A stretch of DNA of 64,000 nt from Chthonomonadia bacterium (GTDB lineage: Bacteria; Armatimonadota; HRBIN16), in NCBI GenBank assembly GCA_013314755.1, contig JABUFA010000018.1:1472-65471 (forward strand). The letters run 5' to 3'. Each line of letters starts with the position of its first letter. Within the stretch, counting starts at the first letter, position 1. The notes below the pieces were generated by a model. The model was not told the origin of the DNA and searched no databases. It saw only the letters and a list, made by a program, of their open reading frames with translations. Below are positions 18,614 through 39,200 of this stretch, one piece after another. A program made the translations under genes and the position numbers.

Positions 18614-18678
18614 CGCTATCAGGCACAGATGTTTGAATAACAGGGGCAACCTGTTTCAGGTTGCCCCCAAACCGTCTG

Positions 18679-22909: not shown

Positions 22910-24060
22910 GCCAGAAACTCCGCGCAGATGGAATTAGCCACCGGCAAACCCTTCGCGGTGATGCGCCAGCGGTCCGGGGTGACCTCCAGCAGGCGCAGAC
23001 GTTGCAACTTGCCGATTTGACGGGCATAGCGCTCCGCCAGCCTGACGCCATAGCGTGCTTCTACCGCAGGTACATCCACCCCGTCACGCAAACGAAGCAT
23101 CAGCATGATTGTTTCGCCCAACGAGGCGTTGGCATCCAGACACTCCTGCTCTTCCACCAGTGAAGAGCCGTTCCGAACCGCCTGCACGAAGCGACGCGGA
23201 TTACTGATTGCCTTCCAGCGCACTCCACGCCGATACGAAACCGCTCCCGGACCAAAGCCGAGATACTCCTCGTTGCGCCAGTACACCATGTTATGCCGAC
23301 AGCGATAGCCCGGTCTGGCAAAGTTGGAAATCTCGTAGTGCTCGTAGCCAGCTCGGGTAAGCGCACGGATGGCGTAGCGATACATCCGCAGGTCGGTCTC
23401 TTCATCGGGCAGGTTCAGCAAGCCCTCCTGGTGCATTCGGAAAAACGGCGTGCCCGGCTCAACGGTCAGCGCGTAACAGGAGATATGTTCAGGCTGAAGG
23501 CTGACCGCCGTGCGCAGGGTTTTCTGCCACTGCTGGATGTTCTGGTCGGGCAGGGCGAACATGAGATCGATGTTGATATTTTCAAAGCCCACCTGCCGCG
23601 CTGTCTCGTAAGCCCGCAGCGCCTCGTTTGCCGTGTGGATGCGCCCCAGCGCTTTCAGCAGACGGTCATCAAACGCCTGCACGCCCATACTGAGCCGGTT
23701 AAAGCCAGCCTGCCTCAGCAGAGAATAGCGTGCCCTGTCTGCAGTGCCCGGGTTAACCTCCACGCTGACCTCTGCATCGGGCAGCACCCGGAAGCGTGAG
23801 CGAATGGCGTCCAGAATGCGCACAATCAGCTCTGGGTCGGGAAACGAGGGCGTTCCTCCACCGAAGAAGATGGTGGGAACCACAATATCGCCTGGCTCGT
23901 CGACGTTTTCGACCGAAAGCCGTATCGCCTCCAGCGTGTCGCGAACGATGCCCCCGCGCCAGGCATAGGTGTTGAAATCGCAGTAGGCGCACCGCCTGGC
24001 GCAGAAGGGTATGTGCACGTATATGGAAACACGTTCGAGGCTCATGATGGTTTTCCACAC
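22906..24060 (-). CDS. hemW: radical SAM family heme chaperone HemW (HemN-like, oxygen-independent coproporphyrinogen oxidase-like)
   Basis: Radical SAM C-x3-C-x2-C in HIPFCARRCAYCDF and a HemN C-terminal domain. The alternative start MSLERV six codons downstream is possible. Confidence 0.8.
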   Translation of the reverse strand: MWKTIMSLERVSIYVHIPFCARRCAYCDFNTYAWRGGIVRDTLEAIRLSVENVDEPGDIVVPTIFFGGGTPSFPDPELIVRILDAIRSRFRVLPDAEVSVEVNPGTADRARYSLLRQAGFNRLSMGVQAFDDRLLKALGRIHTANEALRAYETARQVGFENINIDLMFALPDQNIQQWQKTLRTAVSLQPEHISCYALTVEPGTPFFRMHQEGLLNLPDEETDLRMYRYAIRALTRAGYEHYEISNFARPGYRCRHNMVYWRNEEYLGFGPGAVSYRRGVRWKAISNPRRFVQAVRNGSSLVEEQECLDANASLGETIMLMLRLRDGVDVPAVEARYGVRLAERYARQIGKLQRLRLLEVTPDRWRITAKGLPVANSICAEFLA

Positions 24061-24236
24061 GGGATTATATCACAAACAGGGGGAAGGCGTTACCGCCCAG
24101 AACGCCATCGTGCTTCAAAAAGGCGTTTGAGCATATTCTCCAGAGGGAAAAGCTCTGGGTAGCCAGCGACATGTGGGCAAGATAACAGGTCTAAACTCAC
24201 TGGCTTCGTGCATTCTCACACGTCGTAACTCAACAA

Positions 24237-24626
24237 TTACGCGCTCGTTTTGCCGCTCTGGCAGCGTGGACAGATGCCGAACCACTCGACGCGGTGGGTG
24301 CTAACACGGTAGCCTGTGAGTTGCTGAATGCGTTCCGTTGCGGTGTCATCTATGATGTCAGGAACATCGGCGATATGCCCGCACTGTTCGCAGATGATAT
24401 GCTGGTGCGCGCCGGGGCGACCGTCGAATCGGCTTTTGCGCGAACCTGCCTCCAGCTGGACTACCAGCCCCTCTTCCTGCAGGCGCCCCAGCAGGCGATA
24501 GACGGTTCCCAGACTGATGTTGGGAATAATCTGACGTGCCTGCTCGTATACCCAGTCCGCGGTAGGGTGGGTGTCAGTGTTTCGCACAATGTCCAGAACA
24601 ACCTGTCGCTGTTTGGTATTACGCAT
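24237..24626 (-). CDS. fur: Fur family transcriptional regulator
   Basis: Fur DNA-binding helix region RQRQVVLDIVRNTDTHPTADWVY and C-terminal metal sites HxH...CxxC. Start set at MRNTKQ (24626) because a promoter and AGGAG SD lie immediately upstream. The longer track ORF (start 24752) would swallow them. Confidence 0.75.
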   Translation of the reverse strand: MRNTKQRQVVLDIVRNTDTHPTADWVYEQARQIIPNISLGTVYRLLGRLQEEGLVVQLEAGSRKSRFDGRPGAHQHIICEQCGHIADVPDIIDDTATERIQQLTGYRVSTHRVEWFGICPRCQSGKTSA

Positions 24627-24647
24627 CGGGTTGCCACAGGCTCCTTT

Positions 24648-24668
24648 AATGAGAATGATATTCGTTCC
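24648..24668 (-). promoter_or_regulatory. candidate Fur box in the fur leader (autoregulation)
   Basis: AATGAGAATGATATTCGTTCC is about 12 of 19 to the GATAATGATAATCATTATC consensus. It lies between the -10 and the SD of fur. Confidence 0.35.
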
Positions 24669-24681
24669 TATTTTCACGTTC

Positions 24682-24710
24682 AGTATACCAAGCCTGCCGT
24701 GTTTTGTCAA
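24682..24710 (-). promoter_or_regulatory. sigma70-like promoter of fur (TTGACA-17-TATACT)
   Basis: Minus strand: TTGACA (plus 24705-24710), 17-nt spacer, TATACT (plus 24682-24687). Confidence 0.55.
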
Positions 24711-24999
24711 GGACTGGAGGTAGGACATCACAGCAGAAGGGTATCCTGGCAACCAAACTCACAGACAAGCATTTTAGCCTCTGCAAATGTGGATTGCTGA
24801 AGGTCCAAAATCGTTGGGTTGTTCTATCTCTGTCCTGACTGAGGTCCTGCTGGCGCACAATTTCGGCGCGATAGGGTGTATTATACCCCCCACATCTTCA
24901 GTTATGCCGGACGTTTGTCTCGGGGCGGTAACATTGCATGGGCACACTGGCGTAATTCTCACACAGAGAATCTTTTGTCTGGAGGTAGACCCTGTAAAG

Positions 25000-25491
25000 A
25001 TGAGCGTGAGCGAGGGAAGCGAGGTTCCTATGCCTTTGCACGAGGTGAAAAGGCGCCGCAAACCGGTGCGGAATGTCAATGTGCAGCATCATCAGCAGCT
25101 AACCCCCATGGAGCGCATTGCCCTGTGGATTACACAGCACGTAGGGACGATGGGCTTCTTTTTGCTGATAGCCATCTGGAGCATGTTCTGGCTGTTGTGG
25201 AACCTGATGGCGTCCCGTCCACTTCGATTCGACCCGCCTCCTGCGTTTGTGTTGTGGCTATTCCTGTCTAACCTGATCCAGATTCTGCTGATGCCTCTTT
25301 TGCTGGTGGGGCAGAATGTGCTGAGTCGACATGCTGAGCTCCGCGCGGATAACGACTACGAGGTCAACCTGAAGACCGAGCAGGAGGTAGAGGTTATCTT
25401 ACAGCACCTGGAGTACCAGGACCGTTTGCTTGAGAAACTAGTTGCTCTGGTACAGGCACAGGACGGTCGGCGTACAGATGCTGGCACTTAA
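25000..25491 (+). CDS. DUF1003 family membrane protein
   Basis: Start at the ATG at 25000 with GGAGG 14 nt upstream. C-terminal region FVLWLFLSNLIQILLMPLLLVGQNVLSRHAELRADNDYEVNLKTEQEV is typical of DUF1003. Confidence 0.65.
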   Translation: MSVSEGSEVPMPLHEVKRRRKPVRNVNVQHHQQLTPMERIALWITQHVGTMGFFLLIAIWSMFWLLWNLMASRPLRFDPPPAFVLWLFLSNLIQILLMPLLLVGQNVLSRHAELRADNDYEVNLKTEQEVEVILQHLEYQDRLLEKLVALVQAQDGRRTDAGT

Positions 25492-25506
25492 GCATGCACT
25501 TGCTTT

Positions 25507-28500
25507 TCAGGGCTGTGTCAGATGCACGCTACCTTTGCGTTCCAGCTTGCTCCAGCCGGTGCGCTTTCCCTGCAGGGCGGTTGTTACCGACTTTAGCATC
25601 ACCGCATACATCAGCTGTCTGTACACGAATCGCTGCCAGAAGAGCCACCAGAGCAACCGCCACCGCTCGCGGTCAAGACGGAAAGCGACACAGCCTATCA
25701 ACAGCTCCACCACAAAGAACAGGGAATACAGGAAGCCGATTTGAGCCAGAGCGGCGGTTGCCTGGGGCAGGGGTTGCCAGTCCTGGCGCAGGATACCACG
25801 GCTGAGCCATGCCTGCCCGACGTTGGCAACCGTCCAGGCAATTTGCGCATCCACCAGCGGCGACAGCATCTGAAACACCACCTGAAACAGCCACAGGGAG
25901 GGCAGAACCAGCCGTCCAAACCATCCATATCTTCCGATAGCCTCCCGATGCTTCCACAGACACTGCAGGGTGCCGTACGCCCAGCGGAACCGCTGGCGAA
26001 ATAAACTCTTCAGGGTTTCTGGAGCTTCTGTCAGGGCAATGGCGCGATTCGCGGTCACAATCCGCCAGCCTGAGCGGCGCAAACGCCAGGTGAGATCCAT
26101 ATCTTCTGCCATGGTGTCATTCCGGTAGCCACCAGCCTGCACCACCGCCTCTCGACGCCATGCGCCTGCTGCTCCGGGTACCACTGTTACTCCGTTAAGT
26201 AACGCATAGGCACGCCTGTCTAGGTTCTGATTGATGATGTACTCTATAGCCTGCAGGCGGGTGAGTATGTTTACCCGATTACCCACCTTGACATTACCTG
26301 CTACCGCGCCAACGCGAGGGTCGGCAAACGGCTGAACCAGCTCGCCGATGGTGTCAGGCAAAAACAATGTGTCCGCATCCAGGGCAATGAGTATCTCGCC
26401 AGCGGCGTACCGAATCGCGTGGTTGAGAGCCTCCGCCTTACCCTGATTGTCCTGGCGAATGACCTTTACATTTGACAGGTGTCCAAAAAGCCGCTCCACC
26501 TCTTCCGCGGTGCCATCCTGCGAACCATCATCGACCACGATAACCTCCAGAGGTGGATAATGGCTGTTCAGTACCGCCTGTATTGTGCGCCCAATCACTT
26601 TACGCTCGTTATAAGCCGCGATAATCACGCTGACCGCAGGCTGATAGGATGCCGAAGGCAGGTACTTGCACTCACGAGTGGATGCGATAATAGCCAGGGG
26701 AAGCACGCTAATCGCCCGCAAGAGGGTTAAGACAATGGCGGTCAGAAAAGCGATGCCCAGCAGTATGCTGAACACATAGTTTGCTTCAAACACTACCCGG
26801 TCTACCCCAACAAGCATGAGGTCTCGCCCCGATACTGGTGGCATCACGGCATCGCGTGTGGTGCCAATCAGCTGGGATGCGGTGACAAAACGGTAACCAC
26901 GTTGCTGGAGATAGGGGATGAAAATAGAGAGGGCAGCAACGGTGCGAGAACGGTCACCGCCTCCATCATGCAAAAGAATGACGTTACCGGCGCCTCGCAG
27001 TACCTGCTGAATCACATCCTGAGCAATCTCCCGGGCGGTGCGCTGGTGGATAATACCACCAGGTTGCATCGTGCGCAGGTTCCAGTCCTGCGGGTCGATA
27101 AACTCTCCGATGGTCAGGTAGCCCATCTGCGACGCCAGCAGGATGGGACGCACCTCTTCCGCGCTGGTCGGCTCGGCATCGGCATTATAGGGTGGGCGAA
27201 AGAGCAGGGTCGTTCGTCCCAGAATGCTCTGGAGCACCCGTTGAGTGGCGTTCAGTTCCAGCCGGGCGCGGCGAGTGGACACCGCTGCCATATTCGGATG
27301 GGTAAATGTATGACTGCCGATTTCGTGTCCTTCGTCCCAGATTCGGCGCAATAAGCCGGGGTGGTGTTCCGCGTTCTCGCCAATGATGAAGAAGGTCGCT
27401 CGCACACCAAAACGTTTCAAAACGTCCAGAATCTGCTCGGTGTAGGGAGGATAGGGACCATCATCAAGGGTGATGGCAAGCCATTTTGCATGGTAACCAC
27501 GTCTCTGTATGGTAAAGGCTGAGGGGAAACGGATGTACTCTTCATCGGCGCACAAACCGGTATGGGGGTCCACCTCAATCCAGCGGTTGCCCGTCTGCGG
27601 CAGGGTATTCACAGAGAGCACTTCGCCCTGTCCGATAAACTCTACGTCGTATGGATAACTGATTTCGCGCAGAGCTTGCATATCAGGGCGAGCACCGATC
27701 CGATCGCGGCGCAGAAAGTTCCAGATAGAGGGGTCTTCAGACCCCAGCACCCAGAGCGCAGCCCCCCGCAGCCTCATTTGCGAACCGATAAGCCACTGAT
27801 TCGCAACTGCCACCGCATCCAGCAGCCATACCTCATGAAAGCGACCCTCTTCGTCTGTATAGGTGAAAGTGGGGTTTAACGCTTGTGGGTCGAAGTCCAC
27901 CACACGCTGGGGAGGCTCGTCAGGATGGTTGTCGCGGGCGCGCAGGATGGCTTCGTGAAAAGTGAGTGTCTCAGCCGTGGCAGAGTTTTCCCGCCAGTCG
28001 TAGGCGTAGTTACCAAGTCCCATGACCAGCTTCTCAGCAGGGATATACTGAACCGCCTGAAGCAGAACCCGACGGGACCATAGCAGCGAGGCCACGGGCC
28101 CCGGTGTTCCCGAGGCATAATGTTCGTCGTATACCATCAGTACCACCCAATCACATGCCCGGGAGATTTCGCGCCATATTCCGGGATTCACGCCCGCTTC
28201 GATGTCGGCGCTCAGCTGCAGTCCTGCTTGATGAAGAACGTGCCCCAGGCGTTGAAGCCATCCTGCGAAGAGGGCATAATCCTGGGAATAAAGGTTCTCA
28301 AAGTCTACATTGACGCCCTGAAACTGCTGCTCCAATAACCAGTCGCGCAGCTGCACCGCCAGTGCCTGTTGAGCCGATGGATTGTGCAGCAGATGATGCA
28401 CGCGAGCAGGGTCAAACTGCCCATGCTGAGCGTTGTTGAGCACAGGCATCACGTGCAAACTGTGCTGGCGCGCAATCTCGAGCACATCGTGGTTGTGAGG

Positions 28501-28968
28501 TACGCTTGCGGGATCCCAGTCGTACCAGTCGATGCCATTGCCCTGAGCGTTCAAATGAAGCCACTCCGGCAGAAGATGCGTGAGTTTATCAGCATTGGCA
28601 CGCAAAGAGTGCAGTCCCGTCTCCTGCCACGTTGTGTAAAAGGCAGCGACCACCGGCGAGGTGATGGGTGAGGCGATTATGTGTTGGCGCCGCTGCCGCT
28701 CGTCCTTCAGTATCTCTTCGAACAGTTTCGTACGCTCCTTAATCAGGAGGTGCCGCCTCAGGCGAGTCTGACGATTGACAAAATGGAACACAGAGCCTCG
28801 CAGAGCGCGACGTAGATGCGGATGAACACCGGGTAGATGCGGTATGATGGGAACCGTCAGAAGGCTGAGCACAAAAAGCGTGCTGAGTATCGCGGACAGC
28901 AAGGCGAACATCATACCGAGGCGTGTCAGCCATCGTCTGCGTCTGCCAGTGCGGTCGTAGAATACCAT
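25507..28968 (-). CDS. tri-domain exopolysaccharide synthase: N-terminal TM + GH18-like domain + CE4 polysaccharide deacetylase (NodB) + TM + processive GT2 glycosyltransferase with C-terminal TM bundle
   Basis: Start MVFYDRTGRRRRW (ATG about 28968). GH18-like GVNVDFENL. CE4 motifs TLDDGP and HTFTHP. GT2 motifs VIVVDDGSQDGT, DADT and QRFRWAYG (QxxRW, processive). Hydrophobic helices between domains and at the C-terminus. Confidence 0.75.
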   Translation of the reverse strand: MVFYDRTGRRRRWLTRLGMMFALLSAILSTLFVLSLLTVPIIPHLPGVHPHLRRALRGSVFHFVNRQTRLRRHLLIKERTKLFEEILKDERQRRQHIIASPITSPVVAAFYTTWQETGLHSLRANADKLTHLLPEWLHLNAQGNGIDWYDWDPASVPHNHDVLEIARQHSLHVMPVLNNAQHGQFDPARVHHLLHNPSAQQALAVQLRDWLLEQQFQGVNVDFENLYSQDYALFAGWLQRLGHVLHQAGLQLSADIEAGVNPGIWREISRACDWVVLMVYDEHYASGTPGPVASLLWSRRVLLQAVQYIPAEKLVMGLGNYAYDWRENSATAETLTFHEAILRARDNHPDEPPQRVVDFDPQALNPTFTYTDEEGRFHEVWLLDAVAVANQWLIGSQMRLRGAALWVLGSEDPSIWNFLRRDRIGARPDMQALREISYPYDVEFIGQGEVLSVNTLPQTGNRWIEVDPHTGLCADEEYIRFPSAFTIQRRGYHAKWLAITLDDGPYPPYTEQILDVLKRFGVRATFFIIGENAEHHPGLLRRIWDEGHEIGSHTFTHPNMAAVSTRRARLELNATQRVLQSILGRTTLLFRPPYNADAEPTSAEEVRPILLASQMGYLTIGEFIDPQDWNLRTMQPGGIIHQRTAREIAQDVIQQVLRGAGNVILLHDGGGDRSRTVAALSIFIPYLQQRGYRFVTASQLIGTTRDAVMPPVSGRDLMLVGVDRVVFEANYVFSILLGIAFLTAIVLTLLRAISVLPLAIIASTRECKYLPSASYQPAVSVIIAAYNERKVIGRTIQAVLNSHYPPLEVIVVDDGSQDGTAEEVERLFGHLSNVKVIRQDNQGKAEALNHAIRYAAGEILIALDADTLFLPDTIGELVQPFADPRVGAVAGNVKVGNRVNILTRLQAIEYIINQNLDRRAYALLNGVTVVPGAAGAWRREAVVQAGGYRNDTMAEDMDLTWRLRRSGWRIVTANRAIALTEAPETLKSLFRQRFRWAYGTLQCLWKHREAIGRYGWFGRLVLPSLWLFQVVFQMLSPLVDAQIAWTVANVGQAWLSRGILRQDWQPLPQATAALAQIGFLYSLFFVVELLIGCVAFRLDRERWRLLWWLFWQRFVYRQLMYAVMLKSVTTALQGKRTGWSKLERKGSVHLTQP

Positions 28969-29099
28969 CTCTCTATCCAAAGGAGCACACCCCACAAATC
29001 TAAGGCACTGCCTTTTTATACGCAAGGCACTACCGCACTTATTCCCACCTCTGGTGCATAGAAGAGGAATCCCCACATCGGCGTTCTAACTTTTGTAGC

Positions 29100-32000
29100 A
29101 TGAGACGGATACTGAGGATTGTGCTGTACATTGCGCTTGGTGTGCTGGGGGCGCAAAATGGTGTCTGGGCACAGCTTCCTGTGCCACCTCTGAAACCCAT
29201 CATTGGAGCGCGAATGCCCGCACTCAGTCCCGACGGCAAGCGAATCGCCTTCGTGTACCGCGGGGACGTATGGATTGCTCCCTCAGCGGGCGGACAGGCA
29301 ACCCCTCTGACGCGCCATGTGGAGATGGATGCCTTTCCGCTCTTCTCACCCGATGGGCGATGGATTGCTTTCTCCAGCCTGCGCAACGGAAACTGGGACA
29401 TCTTCGTTGTGCCAGCAGAAGGAGGGGAGGTGAGGCAGTTAACCTATCACGCGAACAGTGAGATTGCGTATGGCTGGAGCCCCGACGGCAAATACCTGCT
29501 TTTCTCATCGGTGCGAGACACCACAAACAACACGCTCTTTGCGCTGGACGTTCGCACCCTGCGCTTCAAAAAGCTGACTGAAGACTACGCCTCCATCAAC
29601 TATCCGTCCTACTCACCCGACGGCAAGATGGTGGTGTACGGGCGATATGGATTCCACTGGACACGTCCGCGATATGTGGGGTCGGCTGCAGCGCAAATCT
29701 GGGTGCTGGACATCAGCACGGGCAAGCGTCGCGCCGTGACGAGTGACAACCGTCAGCACCTGTGGACGAAGTTCCTGCCCGACGGCAAGAGCCTGCTGAC
29801 CGTTACCATCGGGGAGGAGACGCCTTCCAGCAGTAAGCTGGGCACAGCCATTCCCAAAATCGTGGACAGCCCCAGCCGAACGCCCAACCTGTGGGTATTT
29901 GATCTGGAAGGGCGAGGCAAACAGCTGACCTTCTTCACCGGTGGCTCGGTACGCTTCCCGACGGTTGCCCTGCGCACGGGCGACATCGCGTTTGAGTACG
30001 AACATGACCTGTGGCTGCTCCCTGCAGGCTCACGCAATCCGCAGAAAATCGTGCTTTACGCTTCCGAAGACGAAAAGCAGAATACCCGCAGGCGCGAAGT
30101 GCTGACCAGCGGCGTCACCGAAGCGGAACCCTCGCCCGACGGCAAGACCTTCGCCTTCGGATTGCGTGGAGACATCTGGACGGTGCTCATCGAAAAGCCC
30201 AAGGGTGTGGCTGGACGCAGTGCGGAAATCGCCCGGCGGCTCACCGACTGGGCAGGGGAAGATTCGGACTTCGTGTGGTCGGCAGACGGCAAAAAGCTCT
30301 ACTTTACCTCCGACCGCGAGTTCAACACTCGCCTTTACGAGCTGGATATCGAATCCCTGCAGGTGAAGTCGTTGTGGAACCGCACGGAGGACGTTACACG
30401 CCCGAGATTGTCGCCCGACGGGAAGCAGATTGGCTTCTGGGTGTCTGGCAGTGAAGGCGGGTTGTACGTGCTGATACTGGAGACCGGGGAGGTCAAGCGC
30501 ATGGTGAAAGTGCCCGGCACGCACTGGTATGGGCTGGGCGGAGGGGACTTTGCATGGTCGCCCGATATGCGCTGGCTCGCGTTCACCTACCGTGGCGAGG
30601 ATCTGGCGTGGAACATCTGGATTATGCCTGCGGCGGGTGGCGACCCCATCAACGTCACGCGCCTCAATGCCTATCACAGCCAGCCTGCCTGGTCGCCCGA
30701 CGGCAAGTACCTCTTTTTCCAGAGCGACCGGGATGGCAATGGGCTGTACGTGCTCTCGTTAACCGAAGAGCCTGCACGCACAGTGGACACCGACCTGAAG
30801 TACGAGAAGCCGAAGGACAAAGTGCTGGTGGAGATTGACTTCCAGAACATCCGGCGTCGCATCCGCAAGGTGGTCAATCAAAACCCCGATGCTGACCTGA
30901 CTGTGACCAGTGAGGGGTTGATACTGTTCGTCTCAGGAGGCGACATCTGGTCGGTCTCTTACGATGGCAAGGAAACCAAACGCCTGACAACCGGCGGCGG
31001 AATCTCCAGCCTGCGGGTTTCAGCAGATGGCAAGAAGCTGTTCTTCATTCGCAGCGGCGAGCTGTGGACGATGAAGCTGGAGGGCAGTAACCCGCAGGAG
31101 AAGGTGACCTTTACCGCCGATTGGGATCGCGACGTGCGTGCGGAACGCAGAGCCGCGTTTACTCAGTTCTGGCGAAGCTATCACCGCGGCTTCTACGACT
31201 CCAACTTCCACGGCAGAGATTGGGAAGCCATCCGCAAACGCTATGAACCCCTGCTGGACGCGGTGGAGACCCGCGAGGAGTTTGCCACTCTGCTGAGCAT
31301 GATGGTTGGCGAACTGGAGGCTTCGCACTCTGAGGTATCGCCCGCTCCCGGCGGCAATCCCAGCCCGGTTACCCCGCACCTCGGCTTCACGTTTGATTAC
31401 AGCTATGAGGGACCGGGCATTAAGGTGGGCAAAGTGCCGGAAGGTGCACCCGGCTCCTATCCACAAACGCGCATCCGCGAGGGCGAGTACGTGCTGGCGA
31501 TTAACGGACAGGACGTGACCCTCGACGAAAACCTGTGGAGATTGATTAACGACAAACAGGATCGGGAGTTCGAGTTCCTTGTGAACTCCAAGCCGAGCAA
31601 GGACGGCGCGCGAGTGGTAAAATACCGTGTGCTGAGTTACGGGGAGTGGAGCGACCTCAACTACCGCAACCGCATCGAACGCCTGCGCAAGTACACCGAC
31701 GAAAAGAGCGGTGGAAAGATCGGCTACGTTCACATCTCGGGCATGGGCTTCAGCAACCAGGTGCAGTTCGAACGCGAGGTGTATGAACAGGTGGTCGGCA
31801 AGCAGGCGATGATTATTGATGTACGCTTCAACGGAGGCGGCAACATCTCCGACACGCTGGTGGACTGGCTGGAGCGCAAGCCGCATGGCTACTACCGCCC
31901 GCGTGATGGAGCGGTTGAACCTGCCCCCAGCCGCGCCTGGGACAAGCCGATTATCGTGCTGATGAACGAGCACAGCTTCTCTAATGCCGAGATGTTCCCT

Positions 32001-32255
32001 TACGCCATGCGCGCCAAGGGACTGGCGAAGCTGGTGGGTATGCCCACGCCCGGCTATGTCATCTGGACATGGGGACTGCAGCTGGTGGACGGCACAGGCG
32101 CACGGATGCCCCAGAGCGGCGTGTACCGGCTGGATGGCACACCGATGGAAAACATGGGTGAAAAGCCAGACGTGCAGGTGTGGATGAGCCCCGAAGACTG
32201 GCTCGCCGAACGTGACCCCCAGCTGGACAAAGCGATCGAGATGCTGATGCGGTAA
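29100..32255 (+). CDS. tricorn protease homolog (tandem PD40 beta-propellers + PDZ + S41-like C-terminal peptidase domain), secreted
   Basis: Signal peptide MRRILRIVLYIALGVLGAQNGVWA. Many SPDGK/WSPDG PD40 repeats. C-terminal S41-like FNGGGNISD and VLMNEHSFSNAEMF. 1051 aa, close to tricorn size. Confidence 0.75.
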   Translation: MRRILRIVLYIALGVLGAQNGVWAQLPVPPLKPIIGARMPALSPDGKRIAFVYRGDVWIAPSAGGQATPLTRHVEMDAFPLFSPDGRWIAFSSLRNGNWDIFVVPAEGGEVRQLTYHANSEIAYGWSPDGKYLLFSSVRDTTNNTLFALDVRTLRFKKLTEDYASINYPSYSPDGKMVVYGRYGFHWTRPRYVGSAAAQIWVLDISTGKRRAVTSDNRQHLWTKFLPDGKSLLTVTIGEETPSSSKLGTAIPKIVDSPSRTPNLWVFDLEGRGKQLTFFTGGSVRFPTVALRTGDIAFEYEHDLWLLPAGSRNPQKIVLYASEDEKQNTRRREVLTSGVTEAEPSPDGKTFAFGLRGDIWTVLIEKPKGVAGRSAEIARRLTDWAGEDSDFVWSADGKKLYFTSDREFNTRLYELDIESLQVKSLWNRTEDVTRPRLSPDGKQIGFWVSGSEGGLYVLILETGEVKRMVKVPGTHWYGLGGGDFAWSPDMRWLAFTYRGEDLAWNIWIMPAAGGDPINVTRLNAYHSQPAWSPDGKYLFFQSDRDGNGLYVLSLTEEPARTVDTDLKYEKPKDKVLVEIDFQNIRRRIRKVVNQNPDADLTVTSEGLILFVSGGDIWSVSYDGKETKRLTTGGGISSLRVSADGKKLFFIRSGELWTMKLEGSNPQEKVTFTADWDRDVRAERRAAFTQFWRSYHRGFYDSNFHGRDWEAIRKRYEPLLDAVETREEFATLLSMMVGELEASHSEVSPAPGGNPSPVTPHLGFTFDYSYEGPGIKVGKVPEGAPGSYPQTRIREGEYVLAINGQDVTLDENLWRLINDKQDREFEFLVNSKPSKDGARVVKYRVLSYGEWSDLNYRNRIERLRKYTDEKSGGKIGYVHISGMGFSNQVQFEREVYEQVVGKQAMIIDVRFNGGGNISDTLVDWLERKPHGYYRPRDGAVEPAPSRAWDKPIIVLMNEHSFSNAEMFPYAMRAKGLAKLVGMPTPGYVIWTWGLQLVDGTGARMPQSGVYRLDGTPMENMGEKPDVQVWMSPEDWLAERDPQLDKAIEMLMR

Positions 32256-32262
32256 GAGAGAA

Positions 32263-32288
32263 GGGCAGGAGGGAGCCTCCTCCTGCCC
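32263..32288. terminator. possible bidirectional hairpin terminator between the convergent tricorn and epsI genes
   Basis: GGGCAGGAGGG-AGCC-TCCTCCTGCCC (10 of 11 bp stem) immediately after the tricorn stop. It abuts the epsI stop. Confidence 0.4.
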
Positions 32289-32974
32289 TATATTACTTCT
32301 GGTAGTGTCTGCTTGAGCGCGCTGAACAGCTCGGAGGCAAACTGCTGGATGGTGGCTACATCCTTCTGCACATCCCCAGATGCGGGCACGATGAACCGGA
32401 AGAAAAAGGTCTGCTGTCTCTGCATGCCTATCAGGCGTGCCGTGAAGGTGGAGACGCGCGCCAGTCCCATAGAGCCCGTGGTGCCAAAAGGCGTACGATA
32501 CCAGTAGATGACGGTCGCCCGTCTGCCGTTGTTGTTCACCTGGAACAGTCTGGCATGGAATTCCTGGGGCACGCCGGGCACGCTGAACTTTATCTCGCGG
32601 TCGTTCTCCAGCTTCCACCCCTGACTCGGGAAGCAAGCATGCGGATTATGGAAGGTCTCCGCGTGAGTGCCCGCCAGCAGAACAAAGTCTATCTGGTCAC
32701 CCTTTTCGTTGAAGTAATGGCGTGACACGATAGCATCGGGGCGCAATGCCTCGAACGCCTTCGCTCCCATATCGTACCGCTGACCAATCCAACCACCCAG
32801 CTGGAATGGAATGAGCGAGTCGTCAATGTCACGAAGCACCTTGCCACGCAGGGGAGACAGCGTCAGCGTGAGTATCGCCGCCAGCGCCATAAACGCTAGC
32901 AGGATCAGCATGTTGCGATACAGAAGAGGGCGAACCGATTGCTCTGTTGAGGTTACCGTTGCCATCCCAACCAC
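32288..32974 (-). CDS. epsI: exosortase-associated EpsI family protein
   Basis: N-terminal TM plus a periplasmic domain of about 190 aa. Overlaps the upstream exosortase by 22 nt. Family-level sequence pattern only. Confidence 0.65.
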   Translation of the reverse strand: MVGMATVTSTEQSVRPLLYRNMLILLAFMALAAILTLTLSPLRGKVLRDIDDSLIPFQLGGWIGQRYDMGAKAFEALRPDAIVSRHYFNEKGDQIDFVLLAGTHAETFHNPHACFPSQGWKLENDREIKFSVPGVPQEFHARLFQVNNNGRRATVIYWYRTPFGTTGSMGLARVSTFTARLIGMQRQQTFFFRFIVPASGDVQKDVATIQQFASELFSALKQTLPEVI

Positions 32975-33825
32975 CTTCCCAGCTGAAAGAGCACAGCGAA
33001 CGCTACCACCAGCACCAGATAGCCACTCCAGTCGTGGAAGGAGTATCCCGCCTCCTCGCCAAACTTTGTGCCCACGATGCCTATCAGAGCGATACGTAAA
33101 CCGTTAATCACCAGCGCCAGAGGCAGTGCCAACACTATCAGCGCTATCTGCCTCCACAGCTCCACGCGAATATAATACGCAAAGAAGAACGCGAATGTCG
33201 CCATAGATACCAGCATTTTGAAGCCACTGCAGGGTACACCCACATCTAAGTCAAATCCGCCAGGGATATAGATGACGTTCCCCACCCGGTGCGTTTCATA
33301 TCCTATCGTCTTAAGCAGGACATTTGCGATAATCGTGGACCATTCCTGAGCGGGCTGTGAAATCTCATCAAAAATAGTGGCTGGCAACGGCATCATGAAC
33401 CCTAAGAAGAGTACAGGGAACCACACGATGCGCACAAACCGCCATCCCAGCAAAGAGGCAATCATACCGTACATCAGGACGAGGAAAGACAGGGACGAGA
33501 TGGTGGAGGACTGAGTCAGATGCCCCAGCACGCGCATGGCGAGCGCAAGCGCAACCGGCACCAGTCCCCCCGTGCTGGGGGAGATTGCTGTTTGACGGAG
33601 CTCCTCGCGGCGCATCCAGACCATATATAGCGCGAGGAAGGGCACCAGGATGCCGTGCGAATAATATCCATCCGAACGGAACCAGTGATATTGCCAGTAG
33701 TAGAACACGGGATAATAGGCGACCACCAGTGCCACCAGCACGCCGGCTGCTACCCATGCCAGCGGGTTCTGCACCAGCCGCCCCACAGGAACCCCTGTGA
33801 GCCGCCCCACACGCACTTCACTCAT
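32953..33825 (-). CDS. exosortase (exosortase/archaeosortase family, EpsH-like)
   Basis: Eight-TM profile with conserved GVPCSGF (active-site Cys) and Arg residues. 290 aa, typical exosortase size. Confidence 0.75.
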   Translation of the reverse strand: MSEVRVGRLTGVPVGRLVQNPLAWVAAGVLVALVVAYYPVFYYWQYHWFRSDGYYSHGILVPFLALYMVWMRREELRQTAISPSTGGLVPVALALAMRVLGHLTQSSTISSLSFLVLMYGMIASLLGWRFVRIVWFPVLFLGFMMPLPATIFDEISQPAQEWSTIIANVLLKTIGYETHRVGNVIYIPGGFDLDVGVPCSGFKMLVSMATFAFFFAYYIRVELWRQIALIVLALPLALVINGLRIALIGIVGTKFGEEAGYSFHDWSGYLVLVVAFAVLFQLGRWLGWQR

Positions 33826-34292
33826 TGTACTTTCACCGTCCCCTTTCGCCCGAACGTCCAGTGTTTATTGGCAAAGAAGTTCCAGAATACCACGATACCC
33901 GTTGCCAGCAATTTCGCGCCGTTGAAGACCCATTTGGGGTGCGGGTCGTGAGGGTCAAACAACAGCAGGGCGCTGACAATACTGTAGTTTAACAGCGCGC
34001 CGACAATATTGACCGCGACGAAACGCAGGAACTCCTCATGCACCGCACCGCGCTGACGGTCGCGAAACGTCCAGCGACTGTTCCAGAAGTAACCGTTGAA
34101 CACCGCCACACAAAACCCCATCACACTGGCAAGCGCCGCAGGGCGCACGTGTAACAGGTAGTACGCGATATTTGCCACTGCGAAGTCTATCAGCGTACTG
34201 CTGGTGCCAACGATACAGAACTTGATAAATTGTCGAACCCCTTTTCTGCGCAGCTGAGCTGTTACCCAGCCGGTTAGCGAGTTGCCGTTCAT
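33822..34292 (-). CDS. GtrA family membrane protein (polysaccharide synthesis / lipid-linked sugar translocation accessory)
   Basis: 156 aa, four TM helices. Motif FIKFCIVGTSSTLIDFAVANIAYY is typical of GtrA. Confidence 0.75.
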   Translation of the reverse strand: MNGNSLTGWVTAQLRRKGVRQFIKFCIVGTSSTLIDFAVANIAYYLLHVRPAALASVMGFCVAVFNGYFWNSRWTFRDRQRGAVHEEFLRFVAVNIVGALLNYSIVSALLLFDPHDPHPKWVFNGAKLLATGIVVFWNFFANKHWTFGRKGTVKVQ

Positions 34293-34301
34293 GCATATCT
34301 C

Positions 34302-35249
34302 CTACCGCAGAATTGCCCAGATAGCCACCGCTATCCACAACAGTATTGTGGCTTGAATCCCTCGGTCCTCCATCAATACCTGTTCAGGAGCACCACCCAG
34401 GTCTTTCCTGTGCACCAGATACAGATACCGAAAGATGCCGTACATCACGATAGGTATAGTATACTTCAATCCCTCGTGCTGTGCGGCGGTTGCGCTCTGT
34501 ATGGTGTACAGCGCGTAGGTGATAATGGTTGCCGAGCTGACTATCGCAATAAACTGGTCTAACAGACCAACGCTGTATTCACCCAGAGTGACGCGATGGT
34601 TGAATGCCTCTTCTCCCAGGGTAGCCAGCTCATGCCTGCGCTTGCAAAAGCCCAGGAAAAGCGCCAACAGGGTGGTGCAAGCCAGCAACCAGCCCGATAT
34701 ACTCACGTCAATAGCCACCGCTCCTGCCAGCGCGCGAAGCACGAACCCTGCAGCAATCAGGAACACGTCCAGGATCACTATCTGCTTCCCGCCAAGTGAA
34801 TACCCCAGCGACAGAAGCACATACAACACCGCCAGCCAGCCAAACGCCGGGCGTATCCAGAACGCCAGCAACAATCCCACCGCCATCGCGCCGCTCATGA
34901 ACCACCCTGCAACCGTGACGGGAAGTCTCCCGGAAGCGATGGGGCGTTGTCGCTTCTGGGGATGCAGGCGGTCGCGCTCCACGTCCTGCAGGTCGTTATA
35001 GATATATACCGCGCCTGAAATGAGGCAGAAGCTCACAAACGCCAGGATATTCAGCCATACCCTGGGGACGTCTCCCAGCTTCTCGGCAAAGAGCAGTCCG
35101 GCAAAGAGCAGAAAGTTCTTGCTCCACTGGCGCGGGCGCATCGCCACCACGCTCCACTTGAGCCATTCCAAGGGGTGCGTCCGTGCCACAGAAACCTGGT
35201 TTTCCTCAAAACTTTCCATCCACATACCCGCTTGAACCGCTGTTCTCAA
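34302..35249 (-). CDS. UbiA-family prenyltransferase, decaprenyl-phosphate phosphoribosyltransferase (DPPR synthase)-like
   Basis: YIYNDLQDVERDRLHPQKRQRPIASG gives the NDxxDxxxD motif and a DPPR-synthase-like loop. Polytopic membrane protein. Overlaps the neighbouring genes by 4 nt. Confidence 0.7.
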   Translation of the reverse strand: MRTAVQAGMWMESFEENQVSVARTHPLEWLKWSVVAMRPRQWSKNFLLFAGLLFAEKLGDVPRVWLNILAFVSFCLISGAVYIYNDLQDVERDRLHPQKRQRPIASGRLPVTVAGWFMSGAMAVGLLLAFWIRPAFGWLAVLYVLLSLGYSLGGKQIVILDVFLIAAGFVLRALAGAVAIDVSISGWLLACTTLLALFLGFCKRRHELATLGEEAFNHRVTLGEYSVGLLDQFIAIVSSATIITYALYTIQSATAAQHEGLKYTIPIVMYGIFRYLYLVHRKDLGGAPEQVLMEDRGIQATILLWIAVAIWAILR

Positions 35250-35959
35250 CAGGCTCCTTTACCGGTAATCACCGCGGGCACGGTAAACAAAAGGATTTTC
35301 AGGTCGGTCCAGAAACTCATCGTATCAAGGTAAATGTGGTCAAGCTCCACCCATTCGCGGAATCCGATGTCGCTCCGTCCGCTGATTTGCCACAGGCAGG
35401 TCAATCCTGGCAGCACGCTCAGCCGGCGCATCTCCCACTCGCCGTAGCTTGCTACCTCAGAAGGCAGTGGCGGACGCGGACCGACCAGACTCATTTCCCC
35501 GTGAAGCACGTGGATGAGCTGAGGCAGTTCGTCCAGACTGTACCGGCGCAGAAACCGTCCCACGCGGGTGACGCGCGGGTCATTGCGCATTTTGAAGACC
35601 GGACCGCCTCTCACCTCGTTTTTGGTGATGAGTTCACGTTTCATCTGCTCGGCGTTCTTCACCATCGAGCGAAACTTGAAAAACCAAAACGGCTTGCCAC
35701 CTCTGCCGATGCGTACCTGCCTGAAAAGCACCGGACCCGGCGAGTCCAGTTTAATCGCGATAGCAATCAACAGCATCAGCGGTGCGAGCAGTATCAGCGC
35801 AACGCTCGCTACCGTAACATCCAGAACGCGCTTGGCGATGCGATAGCCTCTGGGCAATTCAATCACGGGCACACTTATCTGCAACTCCGCCGCACCTGCC
35901 TCTCCCACAGCGGGAGGCACGATGCCCGGAAGCGGTGTTTGTGCATGTGCCATGGTCAC
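35246..35959 (-). CDS. polyprenyl glycosylphosphotransferase (bacterial sugar transferase, WbaP/EpsB-like priming enzyme)
   Basis: Bac_transf signature KFRSM...DELPQL...GEMSLVGPRP...PGLTCLWQISGRSD. Confidence 0.8.
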   Translation of the reverse strand: MTMAHAQTPLPGIVPPAVGEAGAAELQISVPVIELPRGYRIAKRVLDVTVASVALILLAPLMLLIAIAIKLDSPGPVLFRQVRIGRGGKPFWFFKFRSMVKNAEQMKRELITKNEVRGGPVFKMRNDPRVTRVGRFLRRYSLDELPQLIHVLHGEMSLVGPRPPLPSEVASYGEWEMRRLSVLPGLTCLWQISGRSDIGFREWVELDHIYLDTMSFWTDLKILLFTVPAVITGKGAC

Positions 35960-36058
35960 TCAAGCTCCCTTCGTCCAAAAATGACCGCAGTTTCGTAATC
36001 AATAGGCGAATCCCTCCGTCTCTATTACGCGAACCAAAGCGAACCGAGTTCACCCTTC

Positions 36059-38245
36059 CTATCCTCTGGGTAGCGCGCGCGATGCCGACTGACGCAACGC
36101 CAGCTCGCGATATGCCCGACGATAATAGTAGACGCCCCGGCTGTCCTCCGGGCGCACTTTGTTCAGCACCGCGCCGATCAGGTTTGCTCCCACCTGCTCA
36201 AGACGAGCGTGGAACTCGGCTTCTGCTCCCCGCGAGGGCTGTCCCGCCGCGTGTACGATTATCACGTTCTTCACGTGTGCCGCAATCAGGGTGCTGTCCG
36301 CAAAGATAGCTCCTGCTGGCGAGTCGAAAATCACAAAGTCTGCCAGCCGGGTCGTTCGTTCAATGAACTGTTCCATCATCGGGGAGCGCAGGAGCCGTAC
36401 AGGGTTGTTTGACGATGAGCCTGCCGGTATCAGCACCAGTCCCTCGATCATGGTGGGTACAGCAACGTCCTCAATGGACTTCTCACCAGCAAGCACGTCC
36501 GCCAGCCCTAACGAGTTATCCACCCCGAACCGGCTGTGGAGTGTGGGCTGGCGCATGTCGCCGTCCACCAGCAGTACCCGTGCTCCGTCACGTGCCAGCG
36601 TGATGGCGAGATTCGCTGCCGTGGTGCTTCGTCCCACGTTCGGCTCAGCACTGGCGATAACTACTGCCGACCCCTGCATCTGGCGGCTGGCATACCACAG
36701 GTTGGTGGACAGTATCTGGTAGGACGCACCGATGGGCGTGAAACCGTCCTGCTTATCGAGCGCGTTCGGCTTCATCAGCGGGATGACGGCAAACACCGGC
36801 AGCTTGAGCAAACGCTCGGCTTCCTCCGGCGTGCGCACCGAAGTATCCAGCTGCCCTAACAACAGCACCACACTGCTTGCCAGAATAAGCGACAACAGCA
36901 GCGCCAGCGCGGTCTTCAGTCCTGTCTGCTTGGGCACAGCGAACACCTGTGGCGGGTCAAGCAGGACCAGGGTTGCCGCCTGAGCGCCGCGCTCTCGCGC
37001 CCGTGCCTCTTCCAGCTTTTGTAGGTACAGGTTATAGGTTTGCTCAGCGGTGCGGGCTGCCAGCTCAAGGCGGGCGACCCCGGCTTCCTTGCGCGGCATA
37101 TCCGCCAGCTCCGCCAGCGCGCGACGCAGGGGTTCCGCGTAAGCCTGTGCGCGTTTCGCAGCGGCTTCCTCCGCGACGCGCGCAGCGATGTACGCCTGCA
37201 GGGCGGAGTCGCGGATGGGGTTGCGTGCGCGCGTTTGCGAGTTCAGAATCTGTTCGCTCTCGGTGCGCATTCGCGCCTCAATCTCGGCAATCTGCGCCTT
37301 AAGCGATACCACGTCCGGGTGACGCTCCGCTTTGGTCTGAAGCTCCTTTTGCAGTTCTGCCTGCGCCCGAGCTAGGTCAATGCGCAACTGCTGCAGCACA
37401 GGGTTGGTTGCCATGATGCGCTGCATCTCTTCGTATTCGTTGCGGGCATACTGGCTCTTTAGCTCCTGCTCGGCGGCGATTCGTCGCGCCCGCGCCTCTT
37501 CCATCTCCACCATTGCCTGATCGTAGTTCGCCCGATATTGCGCCGCGCGTTGCACCAGTACCTGTGTCTGGAAAGCCAGATCACCACTGATGCGGTTCGC
37601 CAGCTTATAGTCAGCGAGCGCCTTGCGCTTGGCTTCGAGGTCGGCTCTGGCGCGGGGCAGGAGGTCGTTTTCGATGCGCTCACGTTCGGTGCGCAGCGAT
37701 CCCTGCGTCAGCTCGTTGTACCGCTCGGTCGCCTTCGCCGTCAGCACGCTGAGCGCGACCAGAGCGTTCTGGGGGTCGGTGTCGCGCAGGCGCACGCGAA
37801 GGTACTCCGTGTTAGGAATGGGCTCCGCCCGTACCTTGCCGCTGAATGCCACGATTTGCTCGGGACCAGTCTCCCCTTCAAGCACGCCGGGGCGAACTAC
37901 CTGCAGCTCGCTGACAGTTCTGCCCAACACCGTGTTACTGACCACCATCTGCAAGAGATTCTGCTGGCGCAGCACAGGGTCGTTCACCAGAACGCGCGAG
38001 GGGAAAATCTCGGTCGTGGTCTCGCCGACCGGACGCTGCTCGCGCAGAACGGCAACGGCTTCATACTGCTGGGGGGCTGAGCGCGACCACATCAACACCG
38101 CGCCTGTACACAGCACCACCACCAGCGCGATGATACGCCATCGCCGCTTCAAAATCATATAATGACGCCAGAACTCCACGGATGATTCGCCTCCTTTAGT
38201 ACCTGTAGAATGCCTTGTTAAACAGGATATTCCTTGTGATACCAA
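36059..38245 (-). CDS. polysaccharide co-polymerase / BY-kinase (Wzz domain + tyrosine autokinase, Wzc/GumC-like)
   Basis: N-terminal VEFWRHYMILKRRWRII plus a TM. Long coiled-coil periplasmic region and a second TM. P-loop ASAEPNVGRSTTAANLA. C-terminal Tyr cluster GVYYYRRAY. Confidence 0.8.
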   Translation of the reverse strand: MVSQGISCLTRHSTGTKGGESSVEFWRHYMILKRRWRIIALVVVLCTGAVLMWSRSAPQQYEAVAVLREQRPVGETTTEIFPSRVLVNDPVLRQQNLLQMVVSNTVLGRTVSELQVVRPGVLEGETGPEQIVAFSGKVRAEPIPNTEYLRVRLRDTDPQNALVALSVLTAKATERYNELTQGSLRTERERIENDLLPRARADLEAKRKALADYKLANRISGDLAFQTQVLVQRAAQYRANYDQAMVEMEEARARRIAAEQELKSQYARNEYEEMQRIMATNPVLQQLRIDLARAQAELQKELQTKAERHPDVVSLKAQIAEIEARMRTESEQILNSQTRARNPIRDSALQAYIAARVAEEAAAKRAQAYAEPLRRALAELADMPRKEAGVARLELAARTAEQTYNLYLQKLEEARARERGAQAATLVLLDPPQVFAVPKQTGLKTALALLLSLILASSVVLLLGQLDTSVRTPEEAERLLKLPVFAVIPLMKPNALDKQDGFTPIGASYQILSTNLWYASRQMQGSAVVIASAEPNVGRSTTAANLAITLARDGARVLLVDGDMRQPTLHSRFGVDNSLGLADVLAGEKSIEDVAVPTMIEGLVLIPAGSSSNNPVRLLRSPMMEQFIERTTRLADFVIFDSPAGAIFADSTLIAAHVKNVIIVHAAGQPSRGAEAEFHARLEQVGANLIGAVLNKVRPEDSRGVYYYRRAYRELALRQSASRALPRG

Positions 38246-39152: not shown

Positions 39153-39200
39153 TCACACGCCTCCTTTTCATATAAACGCAAGATTCGTTCCACAACCGCC

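Follow-up and report, generated by a model that had tools for sequence, protein, structure and literature searches.

A GH18-CE4-GT2 membrane protein from an Armatimonadota bacterium as a candidate single-chain exopolysaccharide machine of the MatAB/PgaC/IcaA kind

Synthase-dependent polysaccharide systems such as Pga, Ica, Bcs, Pel and Alg are normally built from several proteins, and a locus in a Chthonomonadia bacterium (GTDB lineage Armatimonadota, HRBIN16) raises the question of whether a single polypeptide might carry the functions of such a system. The locus lies in a stretch of 64,000 nucleotides (the window; assembly GCA_013314755.1, contig JABUFA010000018.1, positions 1,472 to 65,471), in which one gene encodes a predicted membrane protein of 1153 amino acids (aa), here called the synthase, that joins a glycoside hydrolase domain of family GH18, a deacetylase domain of family CE4 and a processive glycosyltransferase domain of family GT2. 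An earlier reading of the sequence (the original prediction) held that this protein unites PgaC with PgaB/IcaB, that it makes, deacetylates and trims its polymer without partner proteins, and that it is paired with a divergently transcribed homologue of the tricorn protease. The comparative analysis presented here favors an exopolysaccharide machine of the MatAB/PgaC/IcaA kind that is synthase-dependent and works on its own, a reading to which, including the mechanism proposed below, we give a probability of roughly 0.6, and treats the protease as incidental.

In the list of open reading frames (ORFs) of the window, the longest ORF spans positions 25507 to 29076 on the minus strand, and its first in-frame ATG, at 28968, opens a product of 1153 aa starting MVFYDRTGRRRRW (MVFYDR...). 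This ATG is the right start, because an NCBI protein of 1153 aa from a metagenome-assembled genome (MAG), 100% identical and annotated as 'glycosyltransferase [Chthonomonadetes bacterium]', and the N-terminal consensus of the family both begin there. The gene is an intact single ORF, as first proposed, and the recurrence of the same single-ORF form in hundreds of genomes speaks against two or three genes separated by frameshifts.

Along the chain, a first transmembrane (TM) segment, TM1, is followed by the GH18 domain, a small β domain, the CE4 domain, a second TM segment (TM2), the GT2 domain with its QRFRW motif, and three C-terminal helices (Table 1). Pfam matches above the curated thresholds place GH18 at residues 107–409 (E 1.4e-15), CE4 (Polysacc_deac_1) at 493–596 (E 5.6e-33) and GT2 at 777–1047 (E 1.4e-40), and hydropathy indicates TM segments at about 19–45, 724–765, 1017–1039 and 1069–1100. 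An AlphaFold2 (AF2) model built from 89 homologues, with a mean pLDDT (AF2 confidence score) of 84.4, has helices at 9–38, 722–768, 1016–1059, 1066–1099 and 1103–1137, with GH18, CE4 and GT2 folded between them. These results support the domain order and the topology that the original prediction had implied, and add to its anatomy a conserved N-terminal motif, a basic helix at residues 66–95 and the β linker domain, which has no match in the Pfam scan of the synthase and accompanies the GH18 module across family members. GT2 must face the cytoplasm for access to UDP-N-acetylglucosamine (UDP-GlcNAc) and only the single TM2 intervenes, so that GH18 and CE4 are predicted to lie outside; the two domains would in effect have been inserted where a PgaC-like synthase has the outer loop joining its two N-terminal TM helices.

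The catalytic residues of all three domains are intact. In an alignment of 120 homologues with 54–100% identity, their diagnostic residues are invariant or nearly so: G218-x-N220-x-D222-x-E224, M278-x-Y280-D281 and Y321-x-Y323-D324-W325 in GH18; T500-x-D502-D503, H553/H557, R591-P-P-Y594, D625-x-x-D628-W629 and L666-H667 in CE4; and D813-D814, D864-A-D866, E955-D956 and Q992-R-F-R-W996, the motifs of a processive enzyme, in GT2. The CE4 domain thus has all five motifs of its family (TFDD, H(S/T)xxH, RxPY, DxxD(W/Y) and LxH), including the Asp-His-His metal triad (in full, T500-L-D-D503, H553-T-F-T-H557 and D625-P-Q-D628-W besides R591-P-P-Y594). The profile scores likewise stand well above their cut-offs, at 58.2 bits for GH18 (PF00704, cut-off 29.6, profile positions 2–315 of 317 covered) and 114 bits for CE4 (PF01522, cut-off 23.1). 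Neither domain hence lacks the catalytic residues without which the original prediction would have failed.

The nearest relatives differ from domain to domain. The GT2 domain is 34% identical to E. coli PgaC over a 269-aa core and 29% identical over 385 aa when the C-terminal TM helices are included (159 bits), and the alignment covers PgaC residues 69–436 of 441, through the C-terminal TM region. NodC matches the GT2 catalytic core alone (32% identity, 102 bits), and the NCBIfam models rank PgaC_IcaA (217.3 bits) above NodC (105) and CelA (81); Pfam chitin-synthase models also match. By Foldseek, the GT2 and TM part matches hyaluronan synthase (HAS) and cellulose synthase (BcsA), and solved structures could not decide the linkage type, because no PgaC or IcaA structure was found in the PDB. 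For the CE4 domain, the nearest solved structures are deacetylases acting on GlcNAc of chitin and peptidoglycan (7y51, 5o6y/4l1g of Bc1960 and 2c1g of PgdA), and NodB is 32% identical (97 bits). Comparison of CE4 with E. coli PgaB by BLASTP returned only chance-level segments (best E 0.03), its 36 PDB sequence matches include no PgaB or IcaB structure, and no homology was found between the ectodomain and PgaB. No GH153 domain was found in the synthase by Pfam, the hydrolase being instead a GH18 domain whose nearest PDB sequences are YdhD (3cz8, E 1.5e-27), YaaH/SleL (4s3k and 4s3j) and a Chromobacterium protein (5jh8), and whose (β/α)8 fold is best matched in Foldseek by SleL (E 2e-23), 5jh8 (TM-score 0.86) and YdhD.

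Set beside known systems, the synthase shares with E. coli PgaABCD and staphylococcal IcaADBC a processive GT2 domain with D, DxD, ED and QxxRW motifs, the TM layout, and a functional logic that combines synthase, CE4 deacetylase and product hydrolase. It differs from them in that its CE4 domain is not PgaB/IcaB-like, its hydrolase is GH18 and not GH153, everything lies on one chain, and no PgaD/IcaD gene, PgaA porin or IcaC is encoded near the locus. The co-linearity with PgaC from the GT2 domain to the C-terminus agrees with the fusion first envisaged, but the score below the PgaC_IcaA equivalog cut-off, the CE4 domain and the hydrolase family do not fit it. With rhizobial NodB and NodC, the synthase has in common a CE4 and a GT2 activity predicted to act on GlcNAc chains, in a domain order that is also the nodB-nodC gene order, whereas NodB and NodC are separate proteins and the likeness to NodC is confined to the catalytic core. 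NodB is, moreover, cytoplasmic, and NodC makes short β-1,4 oligomers. SleL/YaaH and YdhD, the best sequence and structure matches of the GH18 domain, share with it the motifs G-x-(N/T/H)-x-D-F-E and MxYD, but they are soluble, LysM-bearing spore enzymes acting on cortex peptidoglycan, whereas here the domain is membrane-tethered within a synthase and occurs in non-sporulating phyla.

The closest match among characterized systems is instead provided by Streptomyces. From the CE4 domain to the C-terminus, the synthase is 43% identical over 659 aa (E 9e-150) to UKZ03153 of Streptomyces viridifaciens, a single-chain MatB-type paralogue (not SCO2962 itself) annotated as 'bifunctional polysaccharide deacetylase/glycosyltransferase family 2 protein', and its GT2 domain is 47% identical over 375 aa to that of a Streptomyces MatB-type protein. 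On these comparisons, the nearest characterized relative is Streptomyces MatB, a CE4-GT2 fusion making poly-N-acetylglucosamine (PNAG), and the synthase is, by descent, not a fusion of PgaC with PgaB/IcaB and is better anchored on MatAB. In S. lividans, the product of MatAB has been identified as PNAG by staining with the monoclonal antibody F598 and by sensitivity to dispersin B and periodate, while calcofluor staining is independent of matAB (PMC5972031). The same authors describe the MatB CE4 domain as resembling PgdA/NodB, and report that matA mutants lose the PNAG signal (PMC5972031). The synthase and MatAB (MatB, SCO2962; MatA, SCO2963, a small membrane protein) thus share the order CE4, TM segment, PgaC-like GT2 and C-terminal TM helices, as well as a PgdA/NodB-like CE4 domain. 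They differ in the GH18 and β linker domains, about 390 residues placed between TM1 and CE4 in the synthase, in the presence of a candidate MatA-like element on the same polypeptide, and in the IcaC-like acyltransferase (the SCO2961 analogue), which is not adjacent to the synthase gene.

The candidate MatA-like element is the N-terminal motif. Family members begin with the consensus [AM][VI]F[FY]DP[ST][RG][RK]R[WR]xW, directly followed by TM1, in which F3, D5 and R10 are conserved at 90% or more. The corresponding regular expression matches 96 of 120 family N-termini and nowhere else in the 130,000 residues of those proteins. Six-frame translation of the window yields a single match, at the synthase start, and six loci from cultured bacteria have exactly one each. 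The motif is found at the N-terminus of the Bacillus and Sphingomonas three-domain proteins and of a two-domain protein of Kocuria. In Sulfitobacter it lies a short way upstream of where the gene is annotated to start; two Streptomyces records carry it in a separate ORF directly upstream of the MatB-type gene, the position occupied by MatA. According to PMC4391728, MatA is a putative membrane protein, conserved and translationally coupled to matB; SCO2963 has no known domain. The two upstream ORFs (L091, 4891–5658, plus strand; L094, near nucleotide 2285, plus strand) have a disordered head, PVFVD(A/S)SGRRQR, one TM helix and a Pro/Ala/Thr-rich tail; that of L091 has no Pfam domain and aligns with the family in hhalign over the motif and TM segment (26 columns, E 1.6e-4, probability 51%). 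The synthase may hence be described as a MatA core, a GH18 domain, a β linker and MatB in one chain. At the Kocuria rosea locus, a gene annotated as 'chitinase' (L093, 4945–5931, minus strand) lies convergent to the CE4-GT2 gene; it was considered as a split-off GH18 and rejected, having no similarity to the GH18 domain of the synthase.

Whether the fusion recurs elsewhere, which the original prediction had left to be checked, has a clear answer. Scanning one genome for each GTDB species revealed a relative in at least 586 species genomes, nearly all of the best 80 loci being matched over residues about 2–1150. Carriers among those 80 include Armatimonadota (Chthonomonas, Fimbriimonadaceae and the complete Abditibacteriota IAD-21 genome), Thermoanaerobaculia and other Acidobacteriota, Eisenbacteria, Gemmatimonadota, Elusimicrobiota, Ignavibacteriales, Bacteroidota and Chthoniobacter. 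In a word-indexed search there were 541 clusters at E<=1e-10; the best-ranking 120 are all 1079–1218 aa long and carry the GH18, CE4 and GT2 Pfam set. With the N-terminal module (residues 1–491) as query, an exhaustive HMMER search returned 388 representatives at E<=1e-30, with all three domains in 74 of the best 150. Short matches to this module, considered as possible split genes, were mostly singletons from short contigs, labelled 'partial' or accompanied by full-length cluster mates, and were not used as evidence. The full architecture is also present in cultured bacteria, as revealed by tblastn against plasmids and chromids: a protein of 1116 aa on Bacillus mycoides p237 is 39% identical end to end, and the three-domain proteins of Sphingomonas parapaucimobilis, Sulfitobacter, Deinococcus sp. 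and Prevotella nigrescens have 1100, 1088, 1149 and 1135 aa, all of these cultured carriers' proteins being annotated as 'glycosyltransferase'. Orthologues include WP_215576262 (B. mycoides), WP_347091145 (Sphingomonas) and WP_239051893 (Deinococcus). Judged by these searches, the fusion is not rare, and belongs to a large, widespread and uncharacterized family; nothing specific on the three-domain GH18-CE4-GT2 architecture was found in the literature. The 927-aa GT2/deacetylase protein BA3480 of B. anthracis is listed there as uncharacterized, and may be a chromosomal relative of the family in the B. cereus group (PMC6115787).

The genomic context of the family fits a self-sufficient enzyme. 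Clustering of the genes neighboring 81 loci from several phyla yielded no universal conserved partner, in keeping with the independence from partners that had been suggested for the combined synthase, deacetylase and hydrolase, and no PgaD/IcaD-like gene is adjacent to the synthase. In Deinococcus sp. KNUC1210, a gene for a sensor diguanylate cyclase directly follows the three-domain gene (L098, 6172–7707, plus strand), a single case that gives a hint of control by cyclic di-GMP.

In the mechanism proposed here, the cytoplasmic GT2 domain would polymerize UDP-GlcNAc processively and pass the chain through a channel that the three C-terminal helices form together with TM1 and TM2. Outside the membrane, the tethered CE4 domain would take off some of the N-acetyl groups, and the likewise tethered GH18 domain would cut or trim the chain where residues remain acetylated, because substrate-assisted catalysis needs the N-acetyl group. 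The GH18 domain would thereby fill the role of a dedicated hydrolase, in parallel to PgaB-GH153, BcsZ, PelA, AlgL and PslG; to our knowledge, every characterized synthase-dependent system (Pga, Bcs, Pel, Alg, Psl) carries a hydrolase or lyase specific to its own product. The N-terminal motif and TM1 would be the counterpart of Streptomyces MatA, which is needed there for polymer production, and the tricorn-type peptidase would be an unrelated periplasmic or secreted protease, adjacent by chance in this lineage. We infer in this scheme the membrane topology, the substrate, the linkage, the order of events, the target of GH18 cleavage and the equivalence with MatA; a poly-GlcNAc that is de-N-acetylated in part and probably resembles PNAG is the most likely product, and the odds of a β-1,6 linkage are put at roughly even to favorable.

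Several observations weigh against this proposal. We know of no GH18 enzyme that cleaves β-1,6 PNAG, and both the CE4 and the GH18 domains are nearest to enzymes of β-1,4 GlcNAc glycans (chitin, peptidoglycan). The score of 217.3 bits, over positions 39–397 of the 407 in the PgaC_IcaA profile (TIGR03937), does not reach the equivalog cut-off of 422.3. The Streptomyces comparator is a plasmid-borne MatB-type paralogue and not SCO2962, and the equivalence with MatA is drawn from synteny and from a motif of about 26 residues, to which hhalign gives a probability of 51%. The positive-inside rule is ambiguous at TM1, with six Lys/Arg residues before it and seven after it (residues 46–75). Furthermore, the proposal does not account for the passage of the polymer across an outer membrane, if the organism has one.

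The affinities of the two outer domains might also be taken to mean that the product is a β-1,4-linked chitin- or chitosan-like polymer or oligomer, made by a fused analogue of NodC, NodB and a chitinase, that is, by a chitosan synthase with built-in control of chain length. The CE4 domain is indeed nearest to NodB and the chitin and peptidoglycan deacetylases and not to PgaB, the known members of the GH18 subgroup act on β-1,4 GlcNAc-containing glycans, the order of CE4 and GT2 mirrors nodB-nodC, and the Pfam chitin-synthase matches, together with the missed equivalog cut-off, lend themselves to the same interpretation. From the GT2 domain through the C-terminal helices, however, the synthase is nearer to PgaC, and nearest of all to the MatB type. 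The product of the latter is PNAG even though the MatB CE4 domain is likewise PgdA/NodB-like, and calcofluor staining does not depend on matAB (PMC5972031); NodC matches the catalytic core alone. A product of this sort is therefore regarded as possible but doubtful. An elaboration in which the family comprises β-1,4 chitin/chitosan-type synthases with their own deacetylase and chitinase-type cutter, and in which the VFxDPSGRR motif is indispensable for activating or regulating the synthase, takes the place of PgaD/IcaD in function and might sense a nucleotide signal, seems unlikely. The solved relatives of the same domains, the cortex lysins SleL, YaaH and YdhD for GH18 and Bc1960 and PgdA for CE4, also allow for an action of either or both on the cell's own peptidoglycan, with an SleL-like N-acetylglucosaminidase and a PgdA-like deacetylase opening the wall locally or grafting the polymer by transglycosylation. 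This is decidedly unlikely: the three domains are covalently linked, in fixed order, in monoderm and diderm phyla alike, a hydrolase or lyase dedicated to the product is, as stated above, what we know from characterized systems of this class, and no LysM or other peptidoglycan-binding module was found in the synthase by Pfam.

A separate issue is whether the GH18 domain cuts at all, or, in the manner of chitinase-like proteins, only binds the chain as it emerges and guides it as a lectin would. In the synthase, N220 stands where the classical DxxDxDxE motif has its second Asp, and in a more diverse set of 73 three-domain representatives, clustered at 50% identity, D222 or E224 is lost in five, which indicates, as does a Sulfitobacter protein, that the module can persist without catalysis. 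In the latter (L095, 1639–4905, plus strand, a gene whose end is overlapped by a DUF3131 gene), the GH18 domain is kept and its catalytic residues are gone, with CLDAS in place of xxDFE and NGYQ in place of MxYD. Yet N220 is a trait of the subgroup and not a sign of decay, because 5jh8 (N), YdhD (T) and YaaH (H) also have no Asp there, the active enzyme SleL and its relatives being among those with such a replacement. Family-wide, moreover, D222 and E224 are jointly present in 68 of the 73 representatives, Y280 and D281 in 70 each and W325 in all 73, and a lectin-like role is hence quite improbable. The preferred reading remains that of a synthase-dependent machine in which all three domains would act on a PNAG-like product of its own.

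The original prediction had placed the start of the synthase about 130 bp from that of the tricorn homologue, and the measured gap is 131 bp (28969–29099). The neighbor is, on the evidence of its sequence, a genuine tricorn-type S41 peptidase: PD40 repeats (185 bits), Tricorn_C1 (63) and Peptidase_S41 (94) are matched in Pfam, with a weak match to PDZ_Tricorn (17.9, cut-off 25), its C-terminal half matches Thermoplasma tricorn (1k32/1n6d, E 1e-50), and the catalytic residues S742, H743, S961 and E1017 of family S41B are invariant in 36 homologues. Its N-terminus has the features of a signal peptide (MRRILRIVLYIALGVLGAQNGVWA, then QL), as had been surmised, and the junction is conserved in homologues. 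An exported bacterial tricorn homologue is in fact ordinary, because 31 of the 36 sampled homologues, from a group of at least 4147 clusters, have a signal peptide with an A-QL junction. After this junction (window 29100–29180, plus strand), the homologues have PxxxPxxGARMPALSPDG in common, which suggests a conserved mature N-terminus, and they are unusually conserved overall (65–72% identity over Verrucomicrobiota, Binatia, Acidobacteriota and Armatimonadota). The protein shares β-propellers, C1, PDZ and S41 domains and the Ser-His-Ser-Glu set with the tricorn of Thermoplasma acidophilum (MEROPS S41B), and differs from it in a predicted cleavable signal peptide, like most bacterial homologues, which points to an extracytoplasmic role and not to cytosolic protein turnover.

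Divergent starts 131 bp apart, in an arrangement kept in relatives of 76–87% identity, could mean that synthase and protease work together as a pair and are co-regulated from the region between them; the protease would then process, for example, the enzyme or matrix proteins. It is precisely in those relatives, and only at 76% identity or more, that the pairing occurs, and there synteny extends over all of the surroundings as well (exosortase locus, tricorn, synthase, DUF1003, Fur and others). Relatives at 70% and 67% identity lack the pairing, as do Acidobacteriota and all other phyla; it amounts to 5 of the 81 loci in total, and tricorn homologues of 65–70% identity, including that of a Chthonomonadales MAG, lie in unrelated neighborhoods. 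No shared regulatory element was found either: there is no Rfam match, such as a cyclic di-GMP riboswitch, at E<=1 in 24000–33000, no sigma-70-like promoter was reported in the 131-bp spacer, and scanning for promoters and terminators gave no more than expected from shuffled sequence. The comparative data thus largely refute the functional pair, which is highly improbable, and the tricorn association is treated as incidental and is to be dropped.

Other neighbors are equally restricted to lineages. The DUF1003 gene adjoins the synthase in 8 of the 81 loci, and is absent from this position in other phyla. Within Armatimonadota the adjacency persists as far as relatives of 67% identity, including L002 and L006, in which the remaining neighbors have changed. 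In Thermoanaerobaculia (L003/L004/L007; about 25 of the 81 loci, in one lineage), the synthase gene is divergent to genes for an ABC-2 transporter (ATPase and permease) and for a protein of about 314 aa that matches no Pfam family, with Fe/Mn superoxide dismutase and FGE-sulfatase genes downstream. Within the window, an exosortase-type exopolysaccharide locus (32288–41102, minus strand) adjoins the tricorn gene, 33 bp from its stop, and is a second, independent exopolysaccharide pathway. A 400-aa ORF further away lies beside the genes listed with it in Table 1 and one for a DUF2092 protein.

Table 1. Features of the synthase gene and its surroundings in the window (residue numbers refer to the encoded protein).
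Feature	Position	Strand	Basis or remark
Synthase, whole gene, three-domain membrane enzyme GH18-CE4-GT2, 1153 aa	25507..28968	-	ORF list, translation, Pfam
N-terminal signature VFYDRTGRRRR, residues 2-12, predicted cytoplasmic	28933..28965	-	Family conservation, motif regular expression
TM1, residues about 19-45 (AF2 helix 9-38)	28834..28914	-	Hydropathy peak 2.38, AF2 helix
Long basic helix, residues 66-95, TM1 to GH18; putative stalk or juxtamembrane helix	28684..28773	-	AF2, pLDDT about 80
GH18 TIM barrel, residues 106-417, SleL/YdhD cortex-lytic subgroup	27718..28653	-	Pfam PF00704, PDB sequence matches, Foldseek
GH18 catalytic D222-x-E224	28297-28305	-	Alignment
Small all-β linker domain, residues 442-491	27496..27645	-	Five AF2 strands
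CE4 (NodB-fold) de-N-acetylase domain, residues 496-717	26818..27483	-	Pfam PF01522, E 5.6e-33
TM2 and extension, 47-residue AF2 helix 722-768, predicted to return the chain to the cytoplasm	26665..26805	-	Hydropathy peak 2.7 at 724-765
GT2 processive catalytic (GT-A) domain, residues 779-1006, predicted cytoplasmic	25951..26634	-	Pfam GT2 models
GT2 motif QRFRW	25981-25995	-	Sequence
Three C-terminal helices, 1016-1059, 1066-1099, 1103-1137; presumed channel with TM1 and TM2	25558..25923	-	AF2, hydropathy, PgaC co-linearity
Divergent intergenic region, 131 bp	28969..29099	.	Sequence
Tricorn-type S41 peptidase, predicted exported, 1051 aa, not part of the system	29100..32255	+	Pfam PD40, Tricorn_C1, Peptidase_S41
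Signal peptide of tricorn homologue, residues 1-24	29100-29171	+	Conserved in homologues
DUF1003 membrane-protein gene, convergent, 15 bp from synthase stop	24787..25491	+	Pfam PF06210
EpsI	32288-32974	-	
Exosortase	32953-33825	-	Only generic 8TM_EpsH above cut-off; XrtW, XrtD and XrtA highest-scoring but below their own cut-offs
GtrA, UbiA prenyltransferase, priming sugar transferase Bac_transf	within 32288-41102	-	
Tyrosine autokinase/Wzz	36059-38245	-	
Poly_export	38196-39152	-	
S8 peptidase	39201-41102	-	
400-aa ORF with no Pfam match	15490-16692	-	
folE2 GTP cyclohydrolase	16623-17444		Beside 400-aa ORF
GT4 glycosyltransferase	17504-18649		Beside 400-aa ORF
Fervidolysin-type S8 peptidase	19508-21676		Beside 400-aa ORF

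The 'all-in-one' view of this protein is thus a reasonable one, and the protein is a GH18-bearing, putatively MatA-fused form of a known kind of synthase, in a family that has already been sequenced and is uncharacterized. With polymerization, translocation, the removal of N-acetyl groups and a hydrolase for the product all in one polypeptide, the synthase would provide a minimal system for the coupling of modification and cleavage to secretion. The link between the N-terminal motif and MatA, in turn, offers a testable idea for a protein of unclear function since 2015. The carriers range from soil phyla with few cultured members to tractable or clinically relevant organisms such as B. mycoides, Sphingomonas, Deinococcus and Prevotella nigrescens, and with their proteins annotated only as 'glycosyltransferase', the production of poly-GlcNAc-type matrices is probably under-counted in genome surveys.

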